A stretch of 64,000 nt of DNA from Schmidtea nova (Eukaryota). Positions 37,739-64,000 of this stretch are shown one piece after another. How positions within the stretch are numbered: the first letter of the stretch is position 1; the number at the start of each line of letters is the position of its first letter. A program made the translations under genes and the position numbers. The stretch covers positions 574,182,001 to 574,246,000 of the forward strand of contig CM097882.1 in the NCBI GenBank assembly GCA_044892505.1. The letters are read 5' to 3'. The notes under the pieces are model-generated. The model saw only the letters and a program-made list of their open reading frames with translations. It was not told where the DNA came from and did no database searches.

Positions 37739-37746
37739 TATTTATA
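37739..37746 (-). promoter_or_regulatory. Candidate LTR TATA box (TATAAATA); copy in the 5' LTR at 63893-63900
   Basis: Identical in the sister LTR (~30339-30346). A CCAAT in reverse orientation lies ~25 nt upstream, and a candidate donor AAAG|GTAATT follows at 37637 (63791). Confidence 0.55.
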
Positions 37747-41612: not shown

Positions 41613-41702
41613 TCTACAACAATATTTACATCAATTTCCCCATATTTTTGATTTTTTCTGGTTCTTTATTTACACGTATTTACACAATTTTCCGCTTATT
41701 CA

Positions 41703-42174: not shown

Positions 42175-45100
42175 CTATACGACTATCACTGGTTTTCCTT
42201 CGTACAGTTCCTCGTCTTCGATCTGTACCCACATCTCTTCGTGTTTCGATCGTCTTTTCAGCTCTTCTCGTACTTCTTTTGGTAGTTTTATGTTATAATT
42301 CATGACCTTTACGTCTGGCCATTTTACTGCTATGGTCTTATTTCTCATGCCATATCTCCAACATACTATCATGATCGTTATCAGTGGTATACACGCTATG
42401 AATACTCCCATGCTGATTAATCCCATTACTGTTTTTCCAATGCTCATTCTTGGAGTCTCACTTTGGTTTATCATCACGCCATATTGACCTTTCCATTCTG
42501 CTTCCCATTGTTCGTATTGTTGTTGTCTCCGTCTGACTTTTTCGATCACTTTCTCTGGTTCCCATTTTTCTTGTTGATTTGGTATTGTTTCTTCCTTCTC
42601 GTTTTGTTCTCTCTTCTGACTCAATTCTCGGAATTCTAACTTTTTGATTCTCCTCTTTATCGGTGTGTAGTAGGTTTCGCACCTTTCTTGTGGATTTCCT
42701 TGTGTATCCACTTCTTCAATTGCACACACCTCGTATTCTGCGTTTGTTTTCAACTTCCTCATTTCTACCTCGATTATTTCCTTTTTGTCATTTGATGTCT
42801 TTTGACAGTTTCGTGGAGACTTTCCCATACTGTTTGGCATTAATGTCCAACAGATTTCTAGGACCTTTTTATGGATCTTCCATATTATCAACGTTGTTGA
42901 TTCCGGTTCGTTTTCTATTGTCGTTCTTTCCGTTGTTGCCTGTTGAACTCCTTGACTGTTTGTTGTCGTGGTTCTTTTTGACTTTCTTTTCCTCTGTCGA
43001 CTTCCTCCCATTTCAATCGTTCTCGTTCCGTTAATTTGCTCTGGCGTCTTGTATAGTTTACATTCCGAGCTTCTTTGTATTATTTCTCTTATTCTTCGGA
43101 TTACGCAGATTTCGTAGGTTTGTCCGACTTCGAATCCATTTAGTTGAAACGGGATTCCTCGTTCTCTCGTTCTGCATTGCGGTATTATGTTGTTGGTCGA
43201 TACTCCGATGTATTTTCTCCAACACATCCCAATTGTTCTCCGACCAATATTTTTTATCTCCACGGTTACTACTTCATTCGCAATCGTTTCTTGATCTTGT
43301 TTCTTTCTTTTTGGGAACTCAATTATCTCCTTTGCTTGGAACACTTTACACTCGCTTGTTCCTGGTCTGTTTCCGTTTGCTGCCTTTTCCATGAGACATA
43401 GTTCATATTTTTTATCTGTCTCTATTTCTGTTATTTCGATTTCTTCATTTGTCTCTGCTTTTCGACTTTCTCTTGTTTCGCTGATTCCAATTACTTCATT
43501 GTTTCGTCCCCAACATCTTCCATTCGTTGTTCGTTGATCTTGGATGTTTACTAACGTCATCACGCTGATATCTATGTCCTCCATGATTCTCTTAATGAGG
43601 ATTAATATTAATGCTACACATATCAATTCTGGTTGGAATGTTAATTTGCCCGCTGGATTTTTGGTTATTCTTTCTTTCTCTGTTCGGTTTCTGATTCCTT
43701 CTTCTGCTTCAGATTGATTCTTCCCTTTCTCTGATTCCACTTCTGTTCTTCTCGTTGTCTCTTCGCTTCTTTTCTCAATCCATTTCTGTATCTTCAGCGC
43801 TTCCGTTGCTTTGTATAATTGGCATGCAGTTACTTGAGGTGCTTTTGGTTCTCCTCTCTGCTTTATTGCGCATATTATGTATGACTTTTCTTTCTCCAAT
43901 CCTTTGATTTGGATGACGTCTCGCTTCAGATCTGACAATATACACTTCAGCGTATCGTTTTTCTTCAGGTTTTCTTTCCAGCATATTCTTTCGTATACTT
44001 CGTTTCCTCTGATTATCTCTAGCGTGACGTATTGTTTCTTGGCTTCTCCTTGTCCGATGATTGTTATCAATATCGCGATACACAACATTTCTGGTCTCAA
44101 AAGTAGACTTCCTGTCCGTTTTCCATAATTCGTACGTTCGTCTTTTGTTCCACTGTTCTCTCGTTCTTCGGCTTCTCCTTTCTTGTCGTTTCTTGTTGGC
44201 TTTGGTTCTTCTTGTCTTTCTTTTTCATTATCCTCTGTTCTTTTGTTGTCATTGTCTTCGTTGTTCTTTTCGTTGTTACTTTTGTCGTCGAAGTCTCTGT
44301 AACCACCCCCTGGTCCTTTGAAAATGTCGTCCTCGACATTAATTCCTTCAATCAATCTTTCATACGTTTGAACCGCGAGTGTGCTAGACTCGAATTCCCG
44401 TATTTCCATGTCTTTGGATGGTTCTATGTCTTTTAGTCTACTTTGCTTGATCGCTTCTTTGGCATTTGCCCATTCATTCACATATTTTCTGAACAAGTCT
44501 TTCCATCTTCCCATTCGTTCCTGTTCCCTTGGGTTGTTCGTGAATTTCAAATCTCTTCTCTTCAAGAATTCTTCTACTATCTCTGGCTTTTTGTGTCTTA
44601 ATAACGCGCTTCTGATACACCAATTCTGATTCTGTTCCATATGGTCGTTGATCTTGAACACTGGTTCCTTGGTGATCGGATTCACCCATGTTAGTAATGC
44701 TCTCGTTTTCTCTATGTCGTGTATCATTACCGTCAGACTGAAATTCTTTACGTTATTTGCCAGGTATTCGATATCATCTTGTTTCTTGATGGACTTCATG
44801 AACTTGATCATCTCGAAGTTGTTCCACTGTATTGCGATATCTATGATGGAATTATTCTTTCCATTCTTCCCTTCGATTTTTGCTCCTGCTTCGTATAATT
44901 CATTTAGCACTTTCAACTTCGTCTTCTTTCTTGCTGCGATTATCATGATTGTATCTCCATTATCATCAACCGTATTCATATCTGCTTCGCACTTGACCAT
45001 TGTTTTCGTTATTTCTAACACTTCGTTTTCTTTCTTTCGACGTAATGCCCAGTGTATCGGCAATCTCCCATCCTTCGATAATAGGAATGCTACTGGTATT

Positions 45101-48100
45101 TGATTTTTGATCGTTTCTATGTCGATCTCGTTATAATCCCCTTGTGCATATCTGTGCATTTTCTCTGTAATCGCTCCTAATATTTCCAACGAGTTTTTAT
45201 TCTCTTTGAATTCCGATAATTTTTCCTGTGCTTTTGCTACGATTGCGTCTAATCTCTCTTGATGATCAGCTTTTGCATTGAACAACACTGCCTTGCTTCT
45301 TATTCGTGTTTGCATCTGTTTCATCCGTTGGTCTTGATACACTGCTTGTCTGAAGAATTGTCCATACTTCAATGCTTCCACCAGCTCTTTATATCGCTTG
45401 CTTATTTCTTTGTGCTGCTTTTGGATGTCATAAAAATGTTCGAAGCTCATATCCGGATTCCATTGCTTATCACACCATTTCTTGATTAATCCGAATAATT
45501 CTTTCTTTCTGTCTTCCAGCTTGTATTCTCTTGGGTTCTCGCTGACCCGTAGCGTATCTCTCGCTATCAACACTGCAAGTGTTTTTGGATCGTATGTTAC
45601 TTCTAGTAGATGTTTCAGTAACGTATTTTCTCCCTTTGTGAATACTTCATTACAATCTATGACCCACGAATCTCCTTCTGGTCTTTTCCACTTTAGCAAT
45701 ATCCTCCAGGTTTTACTGTTCTTTACCCCGATTGCTTGTTTCATGATCGATCCTCTAGTTAGTTCATCGATTTCCCACGTGGCATTTTCCGTAATATACT
45801 TCAGTATTCGGTGATTCGCTCTGTCAATTGCATGATTCAAGAATGTTCGTCCTTCTTTATCTTTTGTCATCCAATTCGATCTGGTGTTTCCGAATAGCTT
45901 GATTATTTCATTGTTTCTTCCGTGAATTGTCATCATCATAAGTGGAGTGATTCCTTCCCAATTCACTTTGTCAATTTCTCCTCCACCTTCGAGTATCATC
46001 TCCATGATCTCTTTCACTTTTTCGTTTCCACCGTGCTTGATTGCATTGTGCAACGCTGTGTTACCGTCTTTATCCTGTAAATTCAATGTTTGAGGGATTT
46101 CTTCCAGTAACGTTCTTGTAATTGGATGCGCTGTTCTGTCTTTTGCATACTCCATTACATTCTTTCGAACTTCTGACAGTATATGGAAATCGTGCCACCA
46201 TCTCCATTCCGGTATGATTTCTCTGGTTTTCTTTGCCAGTTCTTTGATGTCTATTATCTCCCTTCGGTTGTCCTCTAGACTGGTTTGCGGCTTTTGTTGT
46301 ACTCGTAACATATTAATTCTCGCCGTCTGTGATCTTGTCATCACCCGTTTCTCTGGTGATAGAGTTGCTGTCTTTGGTATTTTTCTGCATCGACATGCAT
46401 TCACGTATATTGGTCTTACCAATGGATTGTTCACCAATCGTACTCGCACATTATTTTCATTTACTGTTGTTATTTCGTATGGCCCTTTGCCTGGTCGTTG
46501 GAGTTTCTTGACCGTACCGGGTATTATCTCTGGTGTCTCAATTATCACCCAATCTCCAACTTTTAACTCATGTGCTTTCACATTCTTTTTCTGGTCATGC
46601 AGATCCTTGTAACTCTCTTGATAGAACTTGATGTTTAGTTCCGCCGTTTTCCAGATCTCTTGCATTCTTTCTTTGAACTTCGTCACGTAATCGTCAACCT
46701 CCATGTACTGTGATAATGGTGGTTGGTATTCTAAATCGATTGGTAAGTTGCAATCTCTTCCGTACATCAGTTGGAATGGACTTAGCTTTGTTGCCGCATG
46801 TATTGACATTCTATATGCCATTAAGCACAAGTTGATATATTCATCCCAGTCAGTTTGATGTTTACTGACGTAATTTGACAACATGCGTATCAATGTTCCA
46901 TTGAACCTTTCTGTTTGATCGTTCGTTTGTGGATGGTATGGGGATGTTCGTAATTTCGCAATTCGGAAGTAATTCGTGACCTCGTCTAATATTTCACTCA
47001 TGAAGTTCGTTCCTTGGTCCGTTAGGATTTTCTTTGGTGTTCCGTATCTGCAGCATATCTCTTCTACCAATATTCTCGCGACTGTTTTTGCTTTTTGATC
47101 TGGTATTGCGAACGCTTCTGGGAACTTTGTTAGATAGTCCGTGACTACTAAGATATATTGATTCCCTTTTAAACTTTCCGGCAATGGCCCAACTACATCC
47201 ATTGCTATCGTCGCCATAGGTTCCGCAGGTATTGGCATAGGTTTTAGTGGTGTTTTCCACTTCGTTCCTACGTTCTTTCTTGTCGCACAGGTTAAGCAGT
47301 TCTTTATCCATTCCTTCACATCATCTTCCATGGTTGGCCAAAAATACTTTTGTCTCAATCTCCCGATTGTCTTTTTCGCTGACATATGTCCGCCTAATTT
47401 TCCGTCATGATATTGAGTCATGATTTCCTTTCGCCTATTCGCAGGTAAGCACATCAATCTCCGTTCTCCATCCTGTATCAATAACCATCCTTTTTCCATC
47501 ACGTATCTATGTTGATATTTCTGCATATGTTCACGCAACACTTGGTTCTTGCCGAATATTTCCATTTCCCTTTCTTTCAAATACTTGCTGATCAATCCCA
47601 ACTCCTCATCTTCGAGTTGATCTTTCCTTAGTTCGCTGAAATCCAAATCCTCCGCTATTAATGCACATATTTTCAGAGCATTCAGGTTCACCAATTCTGG
47701 AAATGTAAACCTTGACATGCAATCCGCATTTGCATTTGCTTTTCCTGCTTTAAACTTTATGAACGGCGAGTATTCCTGTAACTGCATCGCCCAACGCATC
47801 AATCTACTTGATGATTCTTTATGTTGGCCTAACCATACTAGTGGTTGATGATCCGTCGTGATATATATTTCATGACCCCACAATAGGTATTTGAAATGCT
47901 TGATTGCCAATATTATCGCATAGGCTTCTCTTTCTGTGACTGAGTAATTCCTTTCATGTTTCCTGAACGTTCGACTATAATATCCGATTACTCTCTCTTT
48001 GCCTCCTTCATCAAATTGGCCTAGTACTGCTCCTGCTGCGTATCCACTTGCATCTGTTGCCAACAGAAATGGCTTCTTAAAATCTGGATGGACTAGTATT

Positions 48101-51100
48101 GGTGCTGTAATCAGCTTATCTCGCAATGTTTCAAATGCTGCTTGCTGTTCTATTCCCCATATAAACGACACATCTTGTCTTACCAATTCTTGCATTGGCT
48201 TTGATATTCCTGCATAGTCCTTGATAAACTTTCGATAATATCCACACAATCCCAAAAATTCTTGTATTTGAGTCACTGTCTTTGGTGGTGGACATTCTTT
48301 GACTTTCTCGATATTCCTTGGATCTGGTTCTTTTCCTTTTGCTGATACAATGTGACCTAAAAATGTCACTTTCTCTTTTGCCCAATCGCACTTTGACGGC
48401 TTCAATTTCAGTTTCCACTGTCTTAATTTCACGAACACATTTCTGATGTCTTGTAAGTGATCTTCGAATGTTGCGGAGTAGATCAATAGATCGTCGATAT
48501 ACACCATGCATTGCTTTATGCCATGTGTTACGAAATTCATGCATCTCTGGAATGATGCTGGCGCGTTTGTTAACCCAAACGGCATTTTCTTGAATTGGTA
48601 CAGATCTCGTCCGATTGTAAATGCTGTCTTCTCTTTATCCTCATCTTTCATTTTGATCTGCCAATATCCGCTTTTTAAATCCAGTGACGTGAAATAAGCT
48701 GCTCCTTGTAACGTCAATAACATTTCATTTATGTCTGGCAGTGGGTACGTATCTCTTTTCGTAACTGCATTCAATCGTCTGTAATCGATACAGAATCTCT
48801 GAGTTCCATCCTTCTTTTTCACCATCACCACTGGGAATTGCCAGGGTGAGCAACTAGGTTCGATGACCTCTGCATCTAACATCTTTTGTACCTCTTCTTC
48901 TGCCACTGCTTTTTGAGCTTCTGCCAATTTGTATGGTCGTAATGCTATTGGCGTTTCGTCCGTCAACGGTATCGTGTGTAATGTTACATCACATGTTCCC
49001 AGATCTAAATCTGATGCTGCGAATATATCTTTATATTCCATCAACAGTTTCTGTAACTGTTCTTTTTGTCGTTCGTCTAACAACACACTGTCGATTTTCC
49101 ATGGTAATTCGTCTTTGCTTTTCTCGTTCTTGTCTGGTATTTCGATTTCGGACATGGGTGTCAATTTACCCAATCTCTCATTCTCGTATATTATCTTGTC
49201 CTCTTCGTCGAAGTTTACCAGATTAATTGGTATCTCACCTTCTTGGTTTATCGTAACCAATTCTCTTGCCATTGGTAATTCTTTCTTTGCTTCGAACTTC
49301 TTACTGGGTTCGAATATCATATCTCCTTTGATTGTCGAATCGATCTTGACATAACACATCATTTCGTGTCTCGCTGGCACTACTATTTGTTCCGCACTTG
49401 CCACTTTAACTTTCATTCTGCAGATTTTTCCGGTTCTGTCTTTTAGCTTCATTGCTCCTAGATCAATTACGATTTCCTTGAACAGGTCTGGCATCAGGTC
49501 AGTTCCAATAATACATGGTACACTCAGCGATGGTATTACAGCGATGTACGTGTTGATTTCTGCACCTCGATGCTTAATTTTTACAAACCATCTTCCGGCT
49601 ACTTCTACTGTCTCTTGACTGCACGCGATTACATGTACATTCGTTTTCTCGATTTCTCCTTGGTTTTTCTCTGGTATATAGTTGATGTCGATTGCCGAAA
49701 TATTCGCGCCTGTATCGATCATAGCTTCAATTTCTCTTCCGTTTATTTCTACGGTTGTTGTTAAAATCGGTCCCATATTTGTGGACATAACTGCTATCGT
49801 GTGCGTGTCTTCTAACGAGTCTACGCTTTTACCTCGTTTTACTTTGCATCCTTCGGGAATTATCGGGTATATACTTGTCATCGGCATCATCTGCATCATA
49901 TTCGGCTTTGCTTTGTATATCGGTTCGTTATACATTGACTGAGGTGGAGCGCTGTATCTCCAATTCTCAACTGCACTCTTTTCAGTGTATTGTGGAATCT
50001 GGTTTATATTCGCTTGTCCTCCTCGATCGTCATCATCATCATCATCATTGCTTGAGTCATCCTGCGTTCGATATCCTCTCATTCTTTCCCATAATCCTTT
50101 CCTTTCTTTCTTTAGTTGTCGCCTTGCTTGTTCATCTTGCATTATCTTTTTGAATTTCCTTCCGACATCTTCATTTGTTCCTCTCATTTTTGCAAGTATC
50201 TTCAACAACCTCTTTATTCGATGTATGTCTTTTGAGTGTCCATGTAACACCATCGTTTTCGCAAGGAATGGTAAAAACCCTACTACCATTTTCCAATTCA
50301 CTTTCTTCTCTCTCTTGTAGATATCGAAACACGCTAACATCTGCGTTATTATCACTCTGACGATTTGTATTATCAATATAACTCCCAGTATTCCAGCCAT
50401 CATTTGTCCAAATATCAGGAATCTTCCCCACATTGCCTTCATCATATTTTCTGTGGCTTTCTTGAAATGTGCCGGTGACAACAACAGTTCGTAATTCGGT
50501 CCTTCTCGATAATTCGTTCCTCCCGTTATCGTTACGATATTTGACAGTAATGCTTCTCTTCTTGCCGGAAATAGTATATTCTGCCTTGCTGCCTCCAGAT
50601 CTTTTGGACTATAGATTCCGTTGTTTGAGACATCTACGTCACTGAACTGTCTATCCTTTGACAACTGCATTAGCTCAAATTCTCTTGGTGCTAATACTTC
50701 GGTTCTTCCTGGGAACATAACCCATTTGCCATCTGGCTTCTGATAAAGCGGTCCGTACGCATTACTACAGTTGAATGGATTTGGTTCAAATCCTGGTGGA
50801 TTGATGATTCTCGTCACCGGTTGAACGTATCGTACTTTTCCTTTATAATCGATTTCTAGTTCGTTTGTACATTGTCCAGGTTTCAACTGCGTTGTTGCTG
50901 CTAGCGATGCATGTGTCTTTTCGCAAATGTATACATACATTGCCTCTCCAACCACTCTTCCGAAATGTCCTTCTCTCAGTGGTAATAATGGCATCGCGCT
51001 ATCTGGATTCGTAATCGCTACGGCCAACTTTGTCTTTAATATTTCCCGATTCAGTATACAATCGTTATTTATCAGATCATAGTACACTTTTTGCAATGAG

Positions 51101-54100
51101 GCTTGTCCTCTATGGAATAAGAAATCCATTTTATTATTCACATACAAGTGTAGCTTGATATCCATTGTGTCGATCTTGGGTTTCGCATTCGGCACTTCTT
51201 GTTTCGACACGTATATTCCTGGATAGTTTGTTTCGTATACTGTTGTACTGCACTTAAGGGTTGCTTTCCCTTTTATGAATCTCATTCCCACATCCTGATT
51301 TGTGGTTATCAACACTGTTGGTGTGGTTCTCATCTCTATCCGTTTTTCTCTATGATCCGGTTTCAATTGTCTTTTATTCTCTAAAGCCTCTTTGAGATGT
51401 TTTGCTCTAGCTTTGTCATCATCGTCTTCTTCTTGGAATGTTTTCCCTTGAATTTCGTCAAACTTTGCTCCTTGTAGCAGTTGTAATTGACATTCGTTCA
51501 CTTTCGGTTTGTATATCAATGTTGACATTCCCGTTTGACACATGCTCCTGTCAATTTTACACATGGATAACGTTTTCATTTCTCCTGTTGTCGGTTCGAA
51601 GAATGCTTCGTAGCTTTTCAGTTCGACTATGTATGTGTCCATTACCACTAAGTTGGTTGCAGGTACTCCAAATATTGGGTAGGTTTCTCCTTGACAATAT
51701 CCTTCTCCTCCCGTAATCCGTCCTGCTACATAATATGTCTGCTGTAACATCATTCCTGGCTTTCCTCTTATCTTGATTTTATCTCTTGTTGTTACTTCTC
51801 CATGTTTGAATAATGCTTCACAGTCTTCTCCTTGCAACACGATTGGTTCTCTTTCCGTTCCTGGCATGACAATTGCTGAATAATGTCCTCTCCCGCAATA
51901 GAATGCGAATCTCGTCTTTTGCACTTTGCATTCATTCACCATTGTCTTTATTAGTTCTGCCTCTTGATACACGTGGTACCATTGTTCCTTTTTAATCTCT
52001 CTCAACTCTACTGGAGTTGCATCTTTGCATTGCTCCGTACCTCTCAATGAGTACTTTTCTCCTAACTTCATTTGATCACAATCAAATACCTCAAATGTTG
52101 TTACACCTTCCGTGCTTAACAACCATACTAACATCATCATGATTATCGAGTTTAAATTCAACGTCGATCTTCCGTTTCCTTGCATCGTTTGTCTATTCTC
52201 CATTTCCCTCAATACTCCTTCGAGTTTCTTTCTCATCACGTTAGCACCTTCTTTTGTCTGGTTTTCTTTTACAAATTTTTCCCATCCTCCTTTTCTGAGG
52301 ATATATGGTTCAATTTCCTTCTCCATAATCATCGCCGTATTTTTGATATGTCTTCCCATCGGACTTGACTTCGGACTCCCTCGGCTTAGCGTTAGTAGAT
52401 TGTATATCGTATACGAGATTGCTACCAGATATTTGCTATCCGTCTCTGCTCCGTTAAGTAGCCTTTTTATTAACATCGTGGTTCCTTGCCAATCTAGATG
52501 ATTCGCTTTTGTTTTTGCCTTTATCAATTCTGGCATAATCGGTGCTATCGCATTGTGTAGCATCCTTGCCTTTGTACTGGGTTCGTTTATCCGCCACAAA
52601 TTCTTTAATTCTGGATCAATTATCGCTAACACATCCATTATCGTTTTGGTGAGCCATTCCTCTCCTTGGCAGACTTGATTCTCCTCTTTTCCTCTGGTCT
52701 CTGCGATTTTATCCAGTTTCTTCAAGCAAATCTCCCATTGCTCTTGTCTCCTTTCTTCTCTTGACTTTGGAATTGCTGTTGCTGGATCTATCTTTGGTCT
52801 TCCTCTTGGTCGTTTTTCCATTCCAGTTCCGGTTTCTACAAATCTCGTTGCTCTTCCTGTTTCTTCCGTAACATCCCTTCCTTCGTTTGCTCGTTGTTCT
52901 AACCATCTTTCCATTTCTTGAGTAAACTGTGGTTGTTCTTGCTCGTCTTCCGAATCGTTTACCATTTCTATGACTACCTCCTGTTCCACTCCTTGATCGT
53001 CGATTTCTGCTGGTGACGTTATTGGCATCTCTATTATTCTGTCGAAAATATTCGCCGTTGGTTTTTGAGTCAACTTCGTTAGTTCTTCTATCGCTTCGTC
53101 ACTGTCTGTTAGTATCTCATCGACGTCATACGCTTCTGGCGGTGTTCTCTCTCTCGTTTTGATTGGTGTTGTCCTTGTTTGTCCCGAACTTGTTCCTGGG
53201 GTCATTGTTGACTTCATCGGACTTGGTGTACTCATGCTTCCTTTCGCTTTCTTTTCCTCTTTAAACTTCAGTGGTTGACCCACTATTTGTGCCACTGTTA
53301 GCGTATTCATTAGATCCAATTGCACTGGTGTCAGCCAGATTTCCAAACTATTATCCAACGATCGTCCTTGATGTTGCAGGTGGAATGGTAGTTCGTACAT
53401 CAGTTTCTCTTTAACACTTTTCACTTTTTCTGTTAGCATCACCCAAAACTCTTCTTTTCTCTGATTCGGATACATTATCCTCAAATGTATTTTTTGTGGC
53501 GTTTCCTCCGCAAACTCTTTGTTTCTCCACTTTTTTATTACATCGTCTAGTTGCTCTGGACACCACTCGTTAACTCTCTTGTATTCTGCTATCGCTTTAG
53601 CTACTTTTCTCAAGTTCGTTATGTCTTCTCCATTTGAGATTATAAATTGTGCTAAGCCTTTTATTGCTTGTCTTTTTCCCCGAGTATTTCCTCTCAACAG
53701 CTCGATCAATTCACTCGTTTTCTGTTTCTCCAGTTCTGCCCATATTACTGCAGTTTCTGGTCCGTCTAAGTCCGTTGGTAATAACCTCCTTGTTACCATA
53801 CATATCCGTTTCGTATTCCGTTCATGTCTGTCTTCTCCTTCCGGATCTTCTTCATACACGCCTCTTTTCACTTTCCAACATTTCTCTTTGTTATCCCATT
53901 GCTTCTCTACTGGCGTCAATCGTCGTCTGTTAAGATCCAATTCTCCCAATATTGTCTCCCATTCTGGCTTCATCTGCCAGTTCCGATAGATTTCTACTAT
54001 CTGTCTCAACTTGCGCATAACGTCCTCTTGTCGTGCCTTTTTCCTTTCCTCATCTTTTGGTGTTGCTCTTGGCACATCATCCATTCTGATGACATGTATT

Positions 54101-57060
54101 GTCTGATAATTATCCCATATGCCGATTTTATACGCTCGTCTTTCATCGCGTTCATTCAGTAGATGTTCTTTGTATTTTATAGCGATGTCATCCTCAAATT
54201 CGTCTTCCCGTTCTCGTTGTAATATCGTCTCATTGATGACATCTACTATTTCTCCCACTTTACTATCTGGTATTACCTCAATTTGTTTTGTCTCTTCGTT
54301 TGGTAATCTCACGGTAATCTTCAGATCTGATACCTCTCCTCGTTTAAACATTTCTTTTCCCATCTTTGCGATTAGCTTATCCGTTTTGAAATTTGAATGT
54401 CTCGTTTGACTTGTATCTCGTATGTTCTCGATACACTGTTTCAAATTCTCATACTCGCTTTTCGTCAATTCCTTTCGATGTTTCTTGATTTGTTGGATGA
54501 TCTGTTCTATCATCGTATTCAAATTCTCCGCCAAGATTCTTTCCTTTGCCTCCATCAACTGAGGTTTTATTCTCATCTCATAACACGTATTCGCTTCTTT
54601 GACGATTCCTTGTAAGTTCTCTTCCTTCTTGGTGTTGCATATTGATAACGTTGTTATTTCTCCTGGCCATATGCCTGTGTCTATCATATGCGTTCCTTTT
54701 CTCACCAATCCGTTTTCCGAATATATGAACTTGTCTTTGTACGAGCTTCCCAATCTGTCCTCAACCCATCGGTAAATTCCGTCTGTCATTGGGTTCCTTA
54801 TCCAGATTCTCGGTGAACACTCGTTTATCCATATCTGTATTATGTATTCGTTGAGTGGTTCTTTTAGAAGCTTCTCAATCAATTCTTGTATTACTCTCAC
54901 TTCTCTTTCTTGTAACCACTCTTTATACTTCATCTGCCATACTGCTCGTATGAACTTTCGGTATCGTTTCTTGTCAATAAACTCCTCGTTATGAATTACT
55001 TCCAACGCGTTATCCATCAGCTTCTGAATTTCGTCTTCCTTTACTGACATCGTTTCTATCGTCTCGACTACTTCCATCTTTTTATCCTCGTTTTCCGGTT
55101 CCTTTAGCATGTCTCCTGCCAGACTGCTAACTTCGCTGTCGTCTTCTTCATCTGACAACTCTTGTCTTGGGTGTCTCAGCATCCCAATATGCGCGGTTGG
55201 TCTCGCTTTGTTTTTGCTAACTTCTTGTATTAGTTCATTCTCGTTTCCTGTTACTTCAGCTTTTCCCATTCTTTTCTCCAATTCGTCTATTTCTTCCAAC
55301 CGTCTTCGTCTTATTTTTCCCTTGAATATTCGACTGATCCGAGTTTGGTGTTTCACTGGTGGTGGGATTTTTTCCGGTTCCACCTCTCTGATGATCATCA
55401 CGTTTATTTTCGTTTCTGTTACTCCCATATCTTCCCATATATCAGTCATCTTTAACTTCACTTCCGGTAAATCTTCTGTTTGTAGGAAGGCTTCTCTGGG
55501 CAGTTTCGTCACTCCCGGGATCATCTCATTTACTTTATTGAACAATCTTCCCACTTCTTCTTTTACATCGTACTTGAATCGCCACACGTGATCATTCGGC
55601 ATGATCACCAACATTCCTCTTTGTTTGATTCTCACCTCCTCTTCTTGATTCGTTTCTTTTTCTGTTTCTTTTTCTTTTTCTACTTCTTCATCCTTTTGAT
55701 TCTGCTCTGCGGCTTCTACTTCCTGATTCACTTCTTCTTGTTTCTGCTCTTCGTTTCTTTTCTCTTTAATTTCTAACTCGTCTGATTCATCCTGCTGCTT
55801 CTCTTCCATCATTGCTCGCATCATGTTGATCCTTGGATTTCCCTTTTTTAACTGTTGTAATCGTTGTTGTCTGACTTGTTCTTCTTCTCGTCGTACTCTA
55901 GCCCATTCTTGATTATGTTTCTGTTGGCTTTCTCTATTCTCCCTTTCGGCTTCAGCTTCTATTAACTGGATCATGTTTATCTTTGGTTGAGCAGCTTGCT
56001 GGCTTCCTTTTGCCATGCTTTCTATTATCTCGTGTAATCTGGATACCTCTTGTCTCAACTTTGCTTCTTTCATACTGGCTTCGTTTGCACTGCTGTTTGG
56101 GTTGTTCCGTTGTTGACCTTGATTCCCATAGCTTGGTCGATTCCCGTAATTCTGTCTATTTCCATTGTTTGACCAACTTCTCTGCTGATTACACTCTCTT
56201 GACATGTGTCCCGTTTTCCCACATGTATAACACGTTTTCACATAACATCGATTTTCTGAGTGACCTTTTTGTCCACACAGTTTACAGGCTACATTCTGAA
56301 AACAATCTTGTTGCCAATGTCCGTTTTTCCCACACGTCTGACATTGCCTATTCTGCCTGTCATTGTAACTATTTCCTCCATTCGTATTCACCGTAATATA
56401 TCCGTTATTCTTCCTCGCTGGCGGTTCTTTGAACAATCTCTGCGAATGGGGAATACTTTGATTCATGTTTCTTTTTCCTTGTTCTTCATCTTCTGTCGTT
56501 TTTCCCATTACCGCCGTAATTCTCATGTCATTCATTGCCATATGCAATTCGAATAGGTTGGCTGCTTCCAACGCTTCATCTACTGTTTTACATCCTTTGC
56601 ATCCCACTTGTGCTCTGATGTCAGGTCTCCTGAGACCTCGTACAAATAACGCTGTCATCAATTCCTCATCTACTGGGCTTCCTCTATTGAATGCCAGTTT
56701 CGCCAACTTCCTTAATTCACTTGCGTACACCGCATTTGACTCATTTCTCCTCTGTTTTCTTGCTGAGAACTCATCGAACGCTTCATTCAGCACTTTGTTT
56801 ATCCCAAACGTCTGTTGGAAGAATTCCTTGATCGCTTCCCACGTTCTGGGTGGATTACTTCCCGATCTCTTCTCAATATACAGATCCAACGCGCTATCTT
56901 TCAAGTATAGCGGGATTCGATTCGCTAACGTTTCTGCACTCCATCCGCATATATCCACGAATATGTCAAATTCCTTCAGAAACGTATCCAATCTACTGGC
57001 GTCTCCATTGAATGGTTCGCCCTTGAATTTTTCTCTCAGATCCTCTCTGTGTTCACTCAT
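42175..57060 (-). CDS. 4961-aa polyprotein: Gag, Ubl x2, Bcl-2-like, Env (class III), PR, RT, RH, IN, ANK, FN3-like x4, TM
   Basis: CCHC knuckles at 56191-56343; AMIDTGA at ~49710; YIDD at ~48495; LATDASG (RH); HDGKLGGH..CLTC, MDVVG, LTDQG, ERFN, GPY (IN). No stop or frameshift in 14.9 kb. Confidence 0.96.
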   Translation of the reverse strand: MSEHREDLREKFKGEPFNGDASRLDTFLKEFDIFVDICGWSAETLANRIPLYLKDSALDLYIEKRSGSNPPRTWEAIKEFFQQTFGINKVLNEAFDEFSARKQRRNESNAVYASELRKLAKLAFNRGSPVDEELMTALFVRGLRRPDIRAQVGCKGCKTVDEALEAANLFELHMAMNDMRITAVMGKTTEDEEQGKRNMNQSIPHSQRLFKEPPARKNNGYITVNTNGGNSYNDRQNRQCQTCGKNGHWQQDCFQNVACKLCGQKGHSENRCYVKTCYTCGKTGHMSRECNQQRSWSNNGNRQNYGNRPSYGNQGQQRNNPNSSANEASMKEAKLRQEVSRLHEIIESMAKGSQQAAQPKINMIQLIEAEAERENRESQQKHNQEWARVRREEEQVRQQRLQQLKKGNPRINMMRAMMEEKQQDESDELEIKEKRNEEQKQEEVNQEVEAAEQNQKDEEVEKEKETEKETNQEEEVRIKQRGMLVIMPNDHVWRFKYDVKEEVGRLFNKVNEMIPGVTKLPREAFLQTEDLPEVKLKMTDIWEDMGVTETKINVMIIREVEPEKIPPPVKHQTRISRIFKGKIRRRRLEEIDELEKRMGKAEVTGNENELIQEVSKNKARPTAHIGMLRHPRQELSDEEDDSEVSSLAGDMLKEPENEDKKMEVVETIETMSVKEDEIQKLMDNALEVIHNEEFIDKKRYRKFIRAVWQMKYKEWLQEREVRVIQELIEKLLKEPLNEYIIQIWINECSPRIWIRNPMTDGIYRWVEDRLGSSYKDKFIYSENGLVRKGTHMIDTGIWPGEITTLSICNTKKEENLQGIVKEANTCYEMRIKPQLMEAKERILAENLNTMIEQIIQQIKKHRKELTKSEYENLKQCIENIRDTSQTRHSNFKTDKLIAKMGKEMFKRGEVSDLKITVRLPNEETKQIEVIPDSKVGEIVDVINETILQREREDEFEDDIAIKYKEHLLNERDERRAYKIGIWDNYQTIHVIRMDDVPRATPKDEERKKARQEDVMRKLRQIVEIYRNWQMKPEWETILGELDLNRRRLTPVEKQWDNKEKCWKVKRGVYEEDPEGEDRHERNTKRICMVTRRLLPTDLDGPETAVIWAELEKQKTSELIELLRGNTRGKRQAIKGLAQFIISNGEDITNLRKVAKAIAEYKRVNEWCPEQLDDVIKKWRNKEFAEETPQKIHLRIMYPNQRKEEFWVMLTEKVKSVKEKLMYELPFHLQHQGRSLDNSLEIWLTPVQLDLMNTLTVAQIVGQPLKFKEEKKAKGSMSTPSPMKSTMTPGTSSGQTRTTPIKTRERTPPEAYDVDEILTDSDEAIEELTKLTQKPTANIFDRIIEMPITSPAEIDDQGVEQEVVIEMVNDSEDEQEQPQFTQEMERWLEQRANEGRDVTEETGRATRFVETGTGMEKRPRGRPKIDPATAIPKSREERRQEQWEICLKKLDKIAETRGKEENQVCQGEEWLTKTIMDVLAIIDPELKNLWRINEPSTKARMLHNAIAPIMPELIKAKTKANHLDWQGTTMLIKRLLNGAETDSKYLVAISYTIYNLLTLSRGSPKSSPMGRHIKNTAMIMEKEIEPYILRKGGWEKFVKENQTKEGANVMRKKLEGVLREMENRQTMQGNGRSTLNLNSIIMMMLVWLLSTEGVTTFEVFDCDQMKLGEKYSLRGTEQCKDATPVELREIKKEQWYHVYQEAELIKTMVNECKVQKTRFAFYCGRGHYSAIVMPGTEREPIVLQGEDCEALFKHGEVTTRDKIKIRGKPGMMLQQTYYVAGRITGGEGYCQGETYPIFGVPATNLVVMDTYIVELKSYEAFFEPTTGEMKTLSMCKIDRSMCQTGMSTLIYKPKVNECQLQLLQGAKFDEIQGKTFQEEDDDDKARAKHLKEALENKRQLKPDHREKRIEMRTTPTVLITTNQDVGMRFIKGKATLKCSTTVYETNYPGIYVSKQEVPNAKPKIDTMDIKLHLYVNNKMDFLFHRGQASLQKVYYDLINNDCILNREILKTKLAVAITNPDSAMPLLPLREGHFGRVVGEAMYVYICEKTHASLAATTQLKPGQCTNELEIDYKGKVRYVQPVTRIINPPGFEPNPFNCSNAYGPLYQKPDGKWVMFPGRTEVLAPREFELMQLSKDRQFSDVDVSNNGIYSPKDLEAARQNILFPARREALLSNIVTITGGTNYREGPNYELLLSPAHFKKATENMMKAMWGRFLIFGQMMAGILGVILIIQIVRVIITQMLACFDIYKREKKVNWKMVVGFLPFLAKTMVLHGHSKDIHRIKRLLKILAKMRGTNEDVGRKFKKIMQDEQARRQLKKERKGLWERMRGYRTQDDSSNDDDDDDDRGGQANINQIPQYTEKSAVENWRYSAPPQSMYNEPIYKAKPNMMQMMPMTSIYPIIPEGCKVKRGKSVDSLEDTHTIAVMSTNMGPILTTTVEINGREIEAMIDTGANISAIDINYIPEKNQGEIEKTNVHVIACSQETVEVAGRWFVKIKHRGAEINTYIAVIPSLSVPCIIGTDLMPDLFKEIVIDLGAMKLKDRTGKICRMKVKVASAEQIVVPARHEMMCYVKIDSTIKGDMIFEPSKKFEAKKELPMARELVTINQEGEIPINLVNFDEEDKIIYENERLGKLTPMSEIEIPDKNEKSKDELPWKIDSVLLDERQKEQLQKLLMEYKDIFAASDLDLGTCDVTLHTIPLTDETPIALRPYKLAEAQKAVAEEEVQKMLDAEVIEPSCSPWQFPVVMVKKKDGTQRFCIDYRRLNAVTKRDTYPLPDINEMLLTLQGAAYFTSLDLKSGYWQIKMKDEDKEKTAFTIGRDLYQFKKMPFGLTNAPASFQRCMNFVTHGIKQCMVYIDDLLIYSATFEDHLQDIRNVFVKLRQWKLKLKPSKCDWAKEKVTFLGHIVSAKGKEPDPRNIEKVKECPPPKTVTQIQEFLGLCGYYRKFIKDYAGISKPMQELVRQDVSFIWGIEQQAAFETLRDKLITAPILVHPDFKKPFLLATDASGYAAGAVLGQFDEGGKERVIGYYSRTFRKHERNYSVTEREAYAIILAIKHFKYLLWGHEIYITTDHQPLVWLGQHKESSSRLMRWAMQLQEYSPFIKFKAGKANANADCMSRFTFPELVNLNALKICALIAEDLDFSELRKDQLEDEELGLISKYLKEREMEIFGKNQVLREHMQKYQHRYVMEKGWLLIQDGERRLMCLPANRRKEIMTQYHDGKLGGHMSAKKTIGRLRQKYFWPTMEDDVKEWIKNCLTCATRKNVGTKWKTPLKPMPIPAEPMATIAMDVVGPLPESLKGNQYILVVTDYLTKFPEAFAIPDQKAKTVARILVEEICCRYGTPKKILTDQGTNFMSEILDEVTNYFRIAKLRTSPYHPQTNDQTERFNGTLIRMLSNYVSKHQTDWDEYINLCLMAYRMSIHAATKLSPFQLMYGRDCNLPIDLEYQPPLSQYMEVDDYVTKFKERMQEIWKTAELNIKFYQESYKDLHDQKKNVKAHELKVGDWVIIETPEIIPGTVKKLQRPGKGPYEITTVNENNVRVRLVNNPLVRPIYVNACRCRKIPKTATLSPEKRVMTRSQTARINMLRVQQKPQTSLEDNRREIIDIKELAKKTREIIPEWRWWHDFHILSEVRKNVMEYAKDRTAHPITRTLLEEIPQTLNLQDKDGNTALHNAIKHGGNEKVKEIMEMILEGGGEIDKVNWEGITPLMMMTIHGRNNEIIKLFGNTRSNWMTKDKEGRTFLNHAIDRANHRILKYITENATWEIDELTRGSIMKQAIGVKNSKTWRILLKWKRPEGDSWVIDCNEVFTKGENTLLKHLLEVTYDPKTLAVLIARDTLRVSENPREYKLEDRKKELFGLIKKWCDKQWNPDMSFEHFYDIQKQHKEISKRYKELVEALKYGQFFRQAVYQDQRMKQMQTRIRSKAVLFNAKADHQERLDAIVAKAQEKLSEFKENKNSLEILGAITEKMHRYAQGDYNEIDIETIKNQIPVAFLLSKDGRLPIHWALRRKKENEVLEITKTMVKCEADMNTVDDNGDTIMIIAARKKTKLKVLNELYEAGAKIEGKNGKNNSIIDIAIQWNNFEMIKFMKSIKKQDDIEYLANNVKNFSLTVMIHDIEKTRALLTWVNPITKEPVFKINDHMEQNQNWCIRSALLRHKKPEIVEEFLKRRDLKFTNNPREQERMGRWKDLFRKYVNEWANAKEAIKQSRLKDIEPSKDMEIREFESSTLAVQTYERLIEGINVEDDIFKGPGGGYRDFDDKSNNEKNNEDNDNKRTEDNEKERQEEPKPTRNDKKGEAEERENSGTKDERTNYGKRTGSLLLRPEMLCIAILITIIGQGEAKKQYVTLEIIRGNEVYERICWKENLKKNDTLKCILSDLKRDVIQIKGLEKEKSYIICAIKQRGEPKAPQVTACQLYKATEALKIQKWIEKRSEETTRRTEVESEKGKNQSEAEEGIRNRTEKERITKNPAGKLTFQPELICVALILILIKRIMEDIDISVMTLVNIQDQRTTNGRCWGRNNEVIGISETRESRKAETNEEIEITEIETDKKYELCLMEKAANGNRPGTSECKVFQAKEIIEFPKRKKQDQETIANEVVTVEIKNIGRRTIGMCWRKYIGVSTNNIIPQCRTRERGIPFQLNGFEVGQTYEICVIRRIREIIQRSSECKLYKTPEQINGTRTIEMGGSRQRKRKSKRTTTTNSQGVQQATTERTTIENEPESTTLIIWKIHKKVLEICWTLMPNSMGKSPRNCQKTSNDKKEIIEVEMRKLKTNAEYEVCAIEEVDTQGNPQERCETYYTPIKRRIKKLEFRELSQKREQNEKEETIPNQQEKWEPEKVIEKVRRRQQQYEQWEAEWKGQYGVMINQSETPRMSIGKTVMGLISMGVFIACIPLITIMIVCWRYGMRNKTIAVKWPDVKVMNYNIKLPKEVREELKRRSKHEEMWVQIEDEELYEGKPVIVV
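50245..52160 (-). other. env: Envelope domain: chuvirus/Monjiviricetes-type class III fusion glycoprotein
   Basis: Internal signal LNSIIMMMLVWLLSTEG; FEVFDC..YSL...C; CGRGHYSAIV; LAVAITNPD; GEAMYVYIC; CTNELEIDY...YVQPVTRII; GIYS..DL..ARQNILFP; TM at ~50345-50425 followed by an amphipathic segment. Confidence 0.8.
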
Positions 57061-57938
57061 CCCGATTCCACTGTCTTGGAATACTGTACTAATTTTCTTT
57101 GCTTCTAGTTCACCACTTGTTTCTGAATTTGACTTTTCTTCTTCACTACTCTCTGTTTCGTTATCTCTTGATTCGTTTCTTGTTCTGTTTTCCCTGACTA
57201 GTTCACTGTCTATCGTCTCTACTTCGTTTTGTACTGCTAGATCTTCTGGGGTTTCTTCTTGGTTCTCTTTATTACTCGAATTATCGCTGATCTCTACTTG
57301 TTTGTTCTTTTGTTGCTTCGGCTTGTTACCTGTTCTTGTCCTTTTTGCTGCTTTTCTTTCTGCTTCCGTTAAGATTGGTATTATACCTGATCTTGTTTCT
57401 CGTCCCTCAATTTTGTCTATTCCTCAACTGCTTATATTCTCAACTGCTTTTCTACTCCGCTTTTGCTTTGCTTCTTCTTTGATTTGTTTCTTTTGATTGC
57501 TCTGACTGCTAGATTGCTTTGAATTGCTTGATTGATTTGTTTCCTTAAAACAAATAATCACTTACACGATACGTCCCCGTTATCGTGTTTCTCGTCCCTC
57601 TCACGGGTGTAGTCATAATTCATGAAGATCCCCATTTTTCCCATTTCCCTTGATTTTAAGTCTATTTAAATTATCTATGCAGTCGTATCAATTATCTATT
57701 CTTTATCAAATGCACCAATTACTTTTCCCCAGTTTCCCAATTACTTTGTCGCTCAGCGCTCTTATTATTCCCTTTACTTTTTCTCAGGCTTCTCTGGCTC
57801 TGAGTTCAAATCTCCCCTTATCTGTCAACTACTCTATTTCTCAACTATTCGCTTTATCTCTTGTTCGCACTACGTTTACTACTTCATTTCAATTCTCCTC
57901 TCTACTCACCTTTAATTTCAACTGACATCTCTCGTTGG

Positions 57939-59982: not shown

Positions 59983-60441
59983 TTACAAGTACACTGTTAT
60001 TTTCTCGGATACGGGAAGGTTGCACATAGGACATCGTTCGTTTATTTTACATTCATTACAGAATCGAAAATGCCCACACGGCAACAACATTATCTGTATT
60101 TTGTTTATTTCACAGATGTAACACGTCAAATACTGTCTCGTATATTCGGTTGTCGTTCTTATCCACTCATCGTGTTTTGTTGCAATCTGTTGTTCTAGCC
60201 TGTGGCACTCGATATTCATTTCAGGGTTGTTTAATCGCTCTCTATACCACTGATATCGTGTTGCTGTATCCACTGTTATCTTATTCTCGCTTATGCTCAT
60301 CATTATTTCAGCTCTTTCTGTGTTGTTTGTCGGTTCGTGATATCCTCCTACCTCGAGTTGTTTTAACTTTCTCATTACTGTCTCCACCGCCTCGTTGTTT
60401 GTCTCGAAAAACGTTTGCATTTCTTTTATTTTGTTCTCCAT
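59983..60441 (-). CDS. 152-aa protein with a C-terminal IAP/MDM2-type C3HC4 RING
   Basis: CYICEINKIQIMLLPCGHFRFCNEC...CPMCNLPVSEKITVYL at the extreme C-terminus; CAG 3 nt before the ATG; AATAAA 5 nt after the stop. Confidence 0.85.
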   Translation of the reverse strand: MENKIKEMQTFFETNNEAVETVMRKLKQLEVGGYHEPTNNTERAEIMMSISENKITVDTATRYQWYRERLNNPEMNIECHRLEQQIATKHDEWIRTTTEYTRQYLTCYICEINKIQIMLLPCGHFRFCNECKINERCPMCNLPVSEKITVYL

Positions 60442-60970
60442 CCCCTGAATGGATTCTCATTAATTTTGTTATCGATTTTTATTTATCATTTATTATTCCT
60501 ATTCTATGGTAGCCCTACTGTTCGGTTTTTGTTGTTCTATTTCGCGCCACTGCGTATCCCCCCGTGTTCTTGAATGTCGCCCCGACATGATCATTGTTAG
60601 TTGCTCACACTCATACCATTTTCATGCACACTTTTCAGCATACTTTTACCTTACGTCATGCATACTTTTCATCACTTTTCATACTGTTATTCCACATACT
60701 ATTCCTCATACTTCATTCATCCCCATACTTACATTCCATTATCATTCATACTTTCATTCTCATGCATACTTTCATCACGTTCATCAATCTCATTATTTTG
60801 CACTCATACTTTTATTTATTATTTTTCAACCCGATTCGTTCTTGCTTCAGGACCCTCAAACCCTCTATTATTTACTTTACTTTTCCTCGCTAAATTCAAT
60901 TCATCCCGGTTCAGGCGCTCTAAACTGTCCGCAGATATCGAATTCACTTTTTCCCACAAAGATCGATTTA

Positions 60971-60988: not shown

Positions 60989-61378
60989 AATTTATGCTGG
61001 TGTGTTGGTTAGATTGACAACTGAGATCATTAGGATTTTATCTGTTAGGGTGATCTCGCCAACATAAAAACATTTCCCCCGCTGACACCCATGATGTATC
61101 CCTAACTACTCATCATGTTGGTGCTGTGTCAACGTTGTGAAATGACAAGGCAGGTGAGCAACCTTTCGGCTACTATTCCCTTGTTTATTCACGGGTCCAC
61201 CACTACCGATAGAAGGTGTTTGTGGCTTTCTTTCGGTCCCACTTATGCTCTTTACTTTGCTCTAGGGTAAGTTAATTTCAGCGCATCTGCAGTTTAAATG
61301 AATCCGGGTTTTATCTACCTTCAATTTTCAGACATTCCACAAACAAACAAGACAAGTCAAATCATTCATTTTATACAT

Positions 61379-61942
61379 TTATTTATAGTTTAATAATACC
61401 GAGGGTCGGATTACATTTAGTAGTTCTTGCTCGGATAGACCACTGAGCAAGTCTACCTCTATCCCTACGCGATCCGCATATGCGCGTCTCTCCCTACGCT
61501 TTTTCGCTCCCAAGCGATTCCGTCTCTTTGTTCGTTTCGAGCCTTCCAGAATTATTGGGGACGTTGGGGTAGTTGTGATTGGGATGGTTTCTATTTCCGT
61601 TTGGGTACTTGTTGTCATCGATATGGTGTCCACCCACCGATTAAAGGTGCTAGCCCTGATCACTGGGCGTAATTGCTCGGTGATAAACTCCTGGGTTGAT
61701 GCCCTCAAGTAATTCGACAGCTCCATCTTTAGTGCTGCTACCTCCCTAGCTTGCTCGTCGATTGTTCGTTCCGCCCTGTATCTGGCTTGCAGGATGGTTT
61801 TAACCCTCTCTGGGTTGAACCACGTGGCTTTAATTCGCTGGTGCTCGTCGTTTAGCTGCCGCAAGCGGTTTTCTAGGACTCGCGATCGTGCTTTATGCTC
61901 TTTTGCCTCTTGTTTGTAGTTCCTAGTTGGATGTTCACTCAT
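61379..61942 (-). CDS. LTR ORF-B copy in the 5' LTR
   Basis: Translation identical to 35225-35788. Confidence 0.7.
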   Translation of the reverse strand: MSEHPTRNYKQEAKEHKARSRVLENRLRQLNDEHQRIKATWFNPERVKTILQARYRAERTIDEQAREVAALKMELSNYLRASTQEFITEQLRPVIRASTFNRWVDTISMTTSTQTEIETIPITTTPTSPIILEGSKRTKRRNRLGAKKRRERRAYADRVGIEVDLLSGLSEQELLNVIRPSVLLNYK

Positions 61943-62133
61943 CTCTGTAAAATGTATCATTAATCGGGTTATGTATGGTTTGTCTGTTCTCTCAGTCACT
62001 ATCTTTATTATCAAACAGGTGTTTCACTCTCAGATCGCCTCATACATTCAAAGACATAACAAAACCCAAAAATTAATACATTTATTTTTAATACACATCA
62101 AATATTCCTTCGATGGATCGGTTTCCTTGCGAT

Positions 62134-62769
62134 TTAAATGAAGGGTCGTAATTCCTGATCGGCCGTGTTCTCGTTACGACGGATTCCGCTTTCATAGTAT
62201 AACTCCGGGGCGGGGCTCCAACTTAACTTGTCCCGAAAGATGAATACCTCCCAGAGGCGTAGATCCTTGGGCTCGGGATGTTGATCTAGTGATACGCTTC
62301 CTGGCGCGTTTGAGTAGGCGAAGACTTCCCCAGTGTCGCCACACCGAGGCCTGTCTAGCAGTATGTATCCGAGTTGATGTAGCTCTTTTCCGGACGTCAT
62401 TCCGGTACTTAGTAACCAGCGGGGTTGCTTTAACTCATCGAGGAATTGATAAAACCATCGGGTATTTTCCGGCTTGATACGACCCGAGGAGGGTACCCAA
62501 TCGGTATCTCCTTCCCACCGCAACTGTAGTCCAAACGCGCAAGCTGGGGTGCTAGCTGCTGAGCTCATATGGGCCCTCATCCATCGTCGTAGGTGGCGAC
62601 GTGACACTTCGACAACTTTTCGGGGTGCTTCGTTCTCTCCTCTGATATTTGGGTTCGTATTTGGTCTGAGGACGGAGCGGGTGCGCCGTTTCTTACGGAG
62701 GATGGTATTCTCTATCTTTATAGGGTACGCGACCATCGGCTTCTCTTGATAACTCTCCAGTTTCACCAT
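62134..62769 (-). CDS. LTR ORF-A copy in the 5' LTR
   Basis: Translation identical to 35980-36615. Confidence 0.8.
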   Translation of the reverse strand: MVKLESYQEKPMVAYPIKIENTILRKKRRTRSVLRPNTNPNIRGENEAPRKVVEVSRRHLRRWMRAHMSSAASTPACAFGLQLRWEGDTDWVPSSGRIKPENTRWFYQFLDELKQPRWLLSTGMTSGKELHQLGYILLDRPRCGDTGEVFAYSNAPGSVSLDQHPEPKDLRLWEVFIFRDKLSWSPAPELYYESGIRRNENTADQELRPFI

Positions 62770-64000
62770 GGTATTTCTAAAGAAGATGGTTGTTTTTAAT
62801 CTACGGATTCTACGGCAGAACGGACCTATTTATATTAGTCAACCCACCCGTCTTAATTATGAAATTTTGTAGGTCCGAGGGGTACCTTCTGTGGTTTTGC
62901 CGGATCATTGTTGGTGGCTGGACGTGGGTCGTGTTAGATGATAGCTTGAACTAATGTACTCCGCTTTTTATTTCGACGATTCAGCTACGCACGATTTGTT
63001 ACAGTTGTTAATCATATCGCTATTATACTTAATATTCATCAATCAGGTTCAATCACTCAACTACAACCGGTTTTATTTATTGGTAATACTATTTATCACA
63101 TTCAATCTCATCAGTCGTTTTCGATTACTTCCTCATTTAACTAGTAATGATCATGCCATGTCGGGTAATCCCCGTAAGTTCCTGGGGTCCTTACTCCCTG
63201 GGGTTCATCATTTTATCGGTTCTCAATGCCTGTAGTTTATTTATCATCTCTCCTGGCGACTAAACACAGCTGACAGAGGTTATCGATTATCCTTAACCCT
63301 TGATACTAGGTTCACTATGCTCGAACTCGTACGCGCTAATGTTGACATATACCTACCCTCGTCGTCACCTAATTCATCTGCACTAATATTATTCACTGCA
63401 CGTATATCCCTCGTCTAGACTTCGCCACGATATATATCCTTCCCATAAAACGGGCTTCACTTTGCGCTCGTTTACGACTACTAGTTTATACTCGATACCC
63501 TATCATTGTGATGCCAAACGTTTATATTAGATCATCTCTACCTTGATTTCGTTCACGATCATTAGGTCTTACTCGATACCCTATGTGCATTCAACCCCTT
63601 CCGCTTTCCAAATATTTAATACACCTATGGTCCCGCCGCATCAGCACCTCACAACCGAAAGGTTGTGTTGCGCTGAGAGGCCCCAAGAATCCGTCAGGCT
63701 GTTAGGCCTCCGGAAAACCTTATGGATTTTAATATGATTAACAATTATAATTATGAGGGTTTAAAGCAACAATCGAACACACAACAATTACCTTTTATTT
63801 TTTCTCCAAGTTGGTTTTACAATGTTCTCAGTGCTCAACTGCAAGTCACACTTGGTAAAAAATGGCATTGTCAAATACTGATTTGACTTCAGTATTTATA
63901 CTCAACCGGTGTTGTTGGTTAGCCAATCAGCATCGAGTATGTGTGTATGTTTGCTTCATTTTTCATGTTGTCGGCTTTTTGCTGCCTAACTTAACTTGCC

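Follow-up and report, generated by a model that had tools for sequence, protein, structure and literature searches.

A predicted Bcl-2-fold domain beside the internal Env signal peptide of a giant planarian retroelement, a candidate for tethering at the ER

A giant Burro-type LTR retroelement of the planarian Schmidtea nova encodes, just ahead of the internal signal peptide of its envelope protein, a domain which structure modeling and profile comparison indicate to be a genuine member of the Bcl-2 fold. We posit, as an account that is on balance probable, that the Gag-to-Bcl-2 part of the polyprotein stays in the cytosol and is tethered to the ER, at least briefly, by the spent Env signal once signal peptidase has cut. 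A bolder version is offered only tentatively, and we would not expect it to hold in full: this clade of enveloped planarian retroelements may make an ER-anchored Bcl-2-fold survival or calcium factor, tail-anchored by the Env signal after cleavage, so that each Env would bring one membrane-bound Bcl-2 to the stressed ER, with Env swapped at the cleavage site and signal and Bcl-2 kept together.

The element is 29.5 kb long and extends from 34841 to 64301 of the window (the whole 64,000-nucleotide stretch analyzed here), the 5′ LTR running on beyond the window in locus L027. Pfam matches along its 5,082-aa frame come in the order Gag with CCHC knuckles, Monjiviricetes-type fusion glycoprotein, protease, RT, RNase H, integrase, and ankyrin repeats (Table 1); the C-terminal third of the polyprotein, beyond the integrase and ankyrin repeats, is by its sequence a probable surface protein. 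As described in PMC6431247, Burro/GYPSM1 elements are giant Gypsy-like LTR elements of dugesiid planarians, and F1, as we call the element of the window and its family, shares with them a length of ~30 kb with LTRs, an ORF1 of ~5,000 aa, a BCL2-like motif, a mononegavirus-like env lying in frame between BCL2 and PR, ankyrin, and MATH/TRAF; unlike Burro as described there, F1 has its TRAF in a separate downstream ORF. The Burro-type assignment rests on these described features, all of which are found here: length, LTRs, ORF order, BCL2 before env, ankyrin, and MATH/TRAF. Copies of the F1 domain are numerous in its own genome, 139 at 81-100% identity and 11 at 68-69% among the 150 scored of 1,011 candidates.

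Table 1. Positions in the window of the features discussed
Feature	Position	Strand	Basis or remark
5′ LTR	60995..64000, continuing to 64301 in L027	-	LTR comparison
Accessory RING-finger ORF, upstream of gag	59983..60456	-	zf-C3HC4_3, E 5e-9
Open frame, 5,082 aa: Gag ... Bcl-2, signal, Env, PR, RT, RH, IN, ankyrin repeats, membrane-bound C-terminal part	42175..57423	-	ORF and Pfam
Gag capsid-like region and CCHC zinc knuckles, in the 5,082-aa frame	56188..56913	-	Retrotrans_gag and zf-CCHC matches
AT-hook-like KRPRGRPK, preceding the Bcl-2 domain	52792..52815	-	sequence reading; weak AT_hook match in sister L045
Domain with predicted Bcl-2 fold (polyprotein aa 1587-1725; nine helical segments predicted)	52249..52665	-	model, VIA, leave-out profile
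NHLDWQGTTMLI, aa 1641-1652	52468..52503	-	loop before helix 4 plus helix 4
True BH1 region RLLNGAETDSKYLVAISY, directly after NHLDWQGTTMLI	52411..52464	-	A2 and profile alignment to Bcl-xL
BH2 motif EPYILRKGGWEKFV, aa 1705-1718	52270..52311	-	sequence and A2 alignment
Charged linker (36 residues) with little conservation; modeled as a helix at low confidence	52162..52269	-	pN 0.34-0.36 vs 0.155 for the domain
Internal Env signal peptide LNLNSIIMMMLVWLLSTEGVTT, candidate ER anchor	52096..52161	-	cleavage after VTT inferred from sister-family alignment
Mature Env, Monjiviricetes-type fusion glycoprotein, TM at 50403-50347	50104..52095	-	PF24664, E 3e-72
Protease, RT, RNase H, integrase, in the 5,082-aa frame, downstream of Env	46930..49758	-	Pfam
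Accessory TRAF-like ORF (RING, zf-TRAF, MATH), separate, downstream	40200..41630	-	Pfam
3′ LTR, 3,307 bp, TG...CA, GTTA target duplication	34841..38147	-	identical to 5′ LTR

The arrangement recurs in relatives of the element, and six families were compared: F1, F2 (L021), F3 (L045), F4 (L050), F5 (L060), and F6 (L064). A Pfam Bcl-2 search of the genome yielded 33 matches over the cut-off among the 150 scored of 1,679 candidates, many of them inside frames of ~3,000 aa, and the loci examined proved to be LTR elements of lesser size, 12-13 kb, that keep the Gag-Env-Pol order of F1; an Env-family search added F5 and F6, of 16-17 kb. In the RT-RNase H region, F2 is 93% identical to F1 and the sister families 48-51%. 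All six families, the 12-17-kb elements included, have the order Bcl-2, linker of 30-45 residues, signal, Env; since F3 and F4 were found through the Bcl-2 match and F2 through the domain, only F5 and F6, both of which have it, test this order without bias. The 12-17-kb elements (L044-L052, L060-L066) share a Gag-(ubiquitin-like)-Bcl-2-signal-Env-Pol core and carry a second ORF that looks by eye like a DEDD exonuclease. The ubiquitin-like stretch before Bcl-2 was likewise recognized by eye, in L045, L060, and L064; for BIR and ubiquitin/SUMO-like domains, which also belong to the Burro type, the scanned window frames gave no Pfam match.

The original prediction had described a Bcl-2-like helical region of ~135 residues before the Env signal and had quoted two motifs from it. 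Both motifs lie on the minus strand within the long frame, and the region is indeed predicted to adopt a Bcl-2 fold by a template-free model, by VIA, and by Foldseek. The final model was made with AlphaFold2 from nine element sequences, a set free of known Bcl-2s, and reached a pLDDT of 80 and a pTM of 0.78; it drew on the sister families and not on F1 alone. VIA ranks 1-37 are all Bcl-2-fold chains, headed by Hydra Bcl-2-4 (Z 13.8, rmsd 2.6 Å over 136 residues), and the first unrelated row stands at Z 5.6. The Foldseek comparison with the Bcl-2 family, proposed along with the original prediction, agreed in kind, all 45 listed rows belonging to the family, but not in significance, the best E being 2e-3 and none reaching E<=0.001. 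In a viral structure library, herpesvirus vBcl-2s rank at the top. An earlier model (A1, six sequences) had a pLDDT of 49, and fold searches with a model of such low confidence gave no clear assignment.

Taken alone, the F1 domain has no Bcl-2 match in Pfam, in PDB sequences, or in an atlas (whose scores of 0.81-0.84 are leads only), and among 1.84 billion representatives it drew two matches, neither of them Bcl-2; these, an ankyrin protein and a repeat protein, were discarded as unrelated. Neither alignment A1 (longer proteins) nor A2, used as a query for homologs, returned anything at E<=0.001, which is weak evidence. Another comparison is a leave-out profile, built without F1 and F2 from seven sequences of four distant sister families, which scores the F1 domain at 20.5 bits and finds its best match within the entire 5,082-aa frame at aa 1586-1724. 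None of 1,000 shuffles reaches that score, nor do any of 1,000 in which the BH2 part is kept fixed, and with BH2 removed the profile still gives 6.0 bits, as high as none of 1,000 shuffles; because the profile beats every shuffle, the similarity goes beyond chance. The A2 profile (nine element sequences) matches Bcl-xL at E 2.7e-8, with all 60 matches listed belonging to the Bcl-2 family, and host Bcl-2 exons at 92% probability. In the opposite direction, a profile from six host Bcl-2 exons sees the F1 domain weakly, at 4.9 bits, a score that 6 of 1,000 shuffles reach. The cut-off of Pfam PF00452 (31.4 bits) is passed by L045 (33.2), L048 (31.8), and L039 (35.2), with F3 and one F4 copy among those passing, and L050 (30 bits), F5 (19.9), and F6 (18.1) fall below it. 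A tree sets the nine element domains on one side and ten host rows on the other (support 82/97, not starred, with long branches) and would allow a single capture of Bcl-2 by the elements.

Of the two motifs quoted, the one read as BH2, EPYILRKGGWEKFV, is sound, its GGW being invariant in all nine element sequences, but the other, NHLDWQGTTMLI, is not BH1: the A2 alignment, the profile alignment, and the model all place it in the loop before helix 4 and in helix 4 itself, and the true BH1 region follows directly as RLLNGAETDSKYLVAISY. At the NWGR position of Bcl-xL, aligned through the sister families, F1 reads TDSK (52443-52432), and the canonical BH1 with its groove Gly and Arg is not found; the sisters have TDNK, DKDK, NRDR (NWDR in broken F4 copies), DKEV, and NREV, with S, N, D, D, E, and E replacing the groove glycine across all six families. 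F1 also differs from cellular Bcl-2 in that no BH3-type GD motif was seen in helix 2 of its domain. The NWGR Arg forms a salt bridge with the BH3 Asp (PMC10249625, excerpt), and the Gly-to-Ala mutants G138A/G145A do not bind the Beclin 1 BH3 (PMC2807451, excerpt); because Arg and Gly matter for the BH3 contact and TDSK replaces NWGR, BH3 binding of the classical kind is, from the sequence, doubtful, although viral Bcl-2s that have diverged can retain binding. The lost glycine, replaced in every family, weighs in particular against a stable, tail-anchored viral Bcl-2 that binds the BH3 of host Bak/Bok-like proteins and blocks apoptosis, with the signal selected for both roles, a scheme that we consider unlikely. 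The structural neighborhood is more favorable to it: the best matches are groove-bearing pro-survival proteins (Hydra Bcl-2-4, Bfl-1, and Bcl-xL), several viral Bcl-2s among the VIA neighbors bind BH3 peptides at low identity, BH2 is intact, and the NWGR Arg is retained as K or R in four of the six families, the broken F4 copies keeping NWDR.

The next hydrophobic segment, aa 1759-1777, has a 19-residue Kyte-Doolittle mean of 1.52 and adjoins the Env start FEVFDC. It had been said to lie where a Bcl-2 membrane anchor would be; the segment is present, but its place is only roughly that of an anchor, 45 residues after the BH2 Trp in F1 and 30-45 across the six families. By comparison, four of seven unannotated host-type Bcl-2 frames have an in-frame hydrophobic tail that starts 14-23 residues after BH2 and in three of the four ends in RK; host anchors guessed behind introns were left out of these counts, the exon guesses being too noisy. 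Element segments lie 7-31 residues further out than host anchors, end in polar c-regions, and lack a basic C-terminal flank. The uncharged run spans 13 residues in F1 and 19 in F5 and F6, where it has basic N-flanks, and the short cores of F1 and F2 contain Ser, Thr, Gly, and Asn; the 19-residue mean of F1 compares with 1.71-1.86 in host tails and 2.1-2.4 in the four distant families. As an anchor, the F1 segment looks marginal. Contigs of X1-X3 (of a kind not on record) span the stretch, with no joint near the signal among the 15 joints listed of 22. A separate Env start within the linker was considered and set aside as not general, since L045 and L064 lack a Met in the interval from BH2 to the hydrophobic core.

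In L060 (F5) and L064 (F6) the match to the viral glycoprotein profile PF24664 starts within the hydrophobic segment, at position 5 of the profile; this suggests that the segment arrived as Env's signal, a role that accounts for it and leaves no need of a second. The signal might then serve Env only and be quickly removed by SPP or the element protease, leaving a soluble Bcl-2 fold to act on innate signaling as A52 and B14 do, an explanation that we regard as possible but short of probable. A52 and B14 use the fold to inhibit innate signaling without a groove (PMC2494871, excerpt), and the element itself encodes TRAF and ankyrin domains; the short core in F1 and F2, the long, variable, charged linker, and two further signal-like segments in the frame (aa 4438 and 4592), by which internal signals look routine, fit it as well. 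The invariance of the BH2 GGW does not, and the model lies nearer cellular Bcl-2s (Z 12-13.8) than A52, A46, and B14 (Z 7.9, 6.4, and 5.8).

Nor does the segment suit a mitochondrial inhibitor of apoptosis. Targeting of Bcl-xL to mitochondria calls for basic residues on both sides of the anchor (PMC2172731, excerpt), and the elements have no basic C-flank; Bcl-xL restricted to the ER governed calcium and gave no protection from apoptosis (PMC3386223, excerpt). Both points count against the stable BH3-binding Bcl-2 introduced above, in favor of which stand the 19-residue uncharged segments and basic N-flanks of F5 and F6. What endures of the original prediction, in which the signal stays as the tail anchor of a viral Bcl-2, is the Bcl-2 fold together with its position ahead of the Env signal, in six of six families, and, on grounds of topology, a probable cut that would leave the domain on the spent signal; the loss of NWGR in all six, the missing basic C-flank, the expected insertion at the ER, the 13-residue run, and the presence of Gag in the same product speak against a classical tail-anchored anti-apoptotic viral Bcl-2.

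The border between signal and Env is also a border of exchange. Mature Env of F1 is 93% identical in DNA to that of F2 (L021, L022, and L024), both flanks being at ~70%. Against the three F2 copies, pS is near saturation, at 0.54-0.83, across Gag, the Bcl-2 domain, linker, signal, PR, and RT; around aa 1777-1785 it drops from the 0.67-0.83 of the signal to the 0.24-0.33 of the Env ectodomain. Because synonymous differences drop there, these sequences indicate that mature Env was swapped between F1 and F2 and that the signal remained on the Bcl-2 side; one border coincides with the predicted cleavage of the signal, and the other follows the Env cytoplasmic tail. The exchange is a single case, and its border may reflect no more than the onset of conserved sequence. 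That the signal co-segregates with Bcl-2 would nonetheless suit a signal selected for both roles. The domain itself, with pN 0.155 against pS 0.73-0.76 between F1 and F2, is under purifying selection, the linker less so (Table 1), but its constraint barely exceeds that of other non-enzymatic stretches of the frame (pN 0.19 for aa 900-1400).

Returning to the ER tether that we favor, we propose that the hydrophobic segment opens Env translocation and that signal peptidase would cut after VTT, so that Gag-to-Bcl-2 would stay cytosolic on the spent signal, which topology suggests would have the orientation of a tail anchor. HCV core provides the precedent: a cytosolic protein is left in the ER membrane on the E1 signal after signal-peptidase cleavage and is then released by SPP (PMC4068138, excerpt). 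The anchored protein there is the capsid, whereas the candidate in F1 is a Bcl-2 fold; as for core, the site of anchoring would be the ER and not mitochondria, perhaps briefly. The element protease would lie in the cytosol, following the Env TM, and could release the Bcl-2 module from Gag; the module may act at or near the ER as a modulator of host-cell survival or signaling, beside the TRAF, RING, and ankyrin products and most likely not via a classical BH3 groove. Probably the tether arose incidentally, through the fusion of a captured Bcl-2 to the signal belonging to Env, and was retained afterward. Gag, Bcl-2, and signal form one chain before the protease acts, and the spent signal could instead serve assembly, keeping the Gag precursor close to Env at the ER, with the Bcl-2 fold as a membrane-proximal, matrix-like domain. 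The fixed position in six of six families while other cargo varies and the decayed BH1 accord with such a role, but ~1,170 residues lie between the zinc knuckles and the domain in F1, and we judge it very unlikely, albeit compatible with, and not exclusive of, the ER tether.

With cellular Bcl-xL, Bfl-1, and Hydra Bcl-2-4, the F1 domain shares the predicted fold (Z 12.5-13.8), BH2, and a hydrophobic segment C-terminal of BH2; it differs in being part of a polyprotein, with that segment far past BH2 and followed by an envelope protein. With the Bcl-2s of DNA viruses (KSHV Bcl-2, BHRF1, A179L, and M11L; A52/B14/A46) it has in common a captured and strongly diverged fold. Those homologs are stand-alone genes, whereas the F1 domain is embedded between the Gag and Env of a retroelement. 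A preprint reportedly deals with a Burro-encoded apoptosis inhibitor. The BCL2-like motif and in-frame env of Burro are already in print (PMC6431247, excerpt, citing Grohme et al. 2018), and the same 2019 review calls the apoptosis domains of Burro a possibility worth testing; its Burro section, in the excerpt, makes no mention of a signal peptide, an anchor, BH1 decay, Env exchange, or 12-17-kb relatives. BURRO1 transcripts occur in planarian tissues, and SMEDWI-2 acts as a repressor of BURRO1 (PMC8532177, excerpt). A literature search for the anchor reading or for newer work on Burro turned up nothing further in print, and Grohme et al. 2018 may say more. What is new here is the support for the fold, the correction of BH1, the conservation of the arrangement in smaller elements, and, at the cleavage site, the exchange of Env.

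The domain limits, predicted fold, decayed BH1, and processing model now make a fragment of ~190 residues testable. If the spent signal is a lasting anchor, the element would couple envelope synthesis to host-cell protection in an economical way, and with at least 139 near-identical copies scored, this might matter for cell death in an animal used as a model of regeneration; if the anchor reading is false, what is left is a known domain in a known element.

The host genome has Bcl-2 genes of its own, one frame being 99% identical to Schmidtea Bcl2-2. A multi-copy host-type subfamily (L085-L087, L091-L093) has short introns or stops, and several members end in a hydrophobic tail followed by RK; L087 holds two inverted copies. 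Two Bak-like genes lie ~130 kb apart (L033, L035, L076; near 503.6-503.7 Mb), with a BH3-like exon in L076.

Several further features of the element deserve a brief record. Window positions 44112-42178 in the C-terminal third of the polyprotein show the two signal-like segments, similar to each other, a final TM at aa 5002, and repeated fibronectin-III-like blocks with one weak Pfam match (E 0.024). The LTRs contain two open frames of >200 aa each (61379-62023 and 62134-62829, with copies at 35225-35869 and 35980-36675), without a convincing Pfam match, and an accessory ORF of 396 aa after the TRAF ORF (38950-40140) is coiled-coil-like and of no Pfam family. The stretch 60970-60994 beside the 5′ LTR resembles a tRNA-Pro primer site and is a candidate primer-binding site, and upstream of gag, at 58672-58994, lies a tandem repeat with a 19-nt unit.
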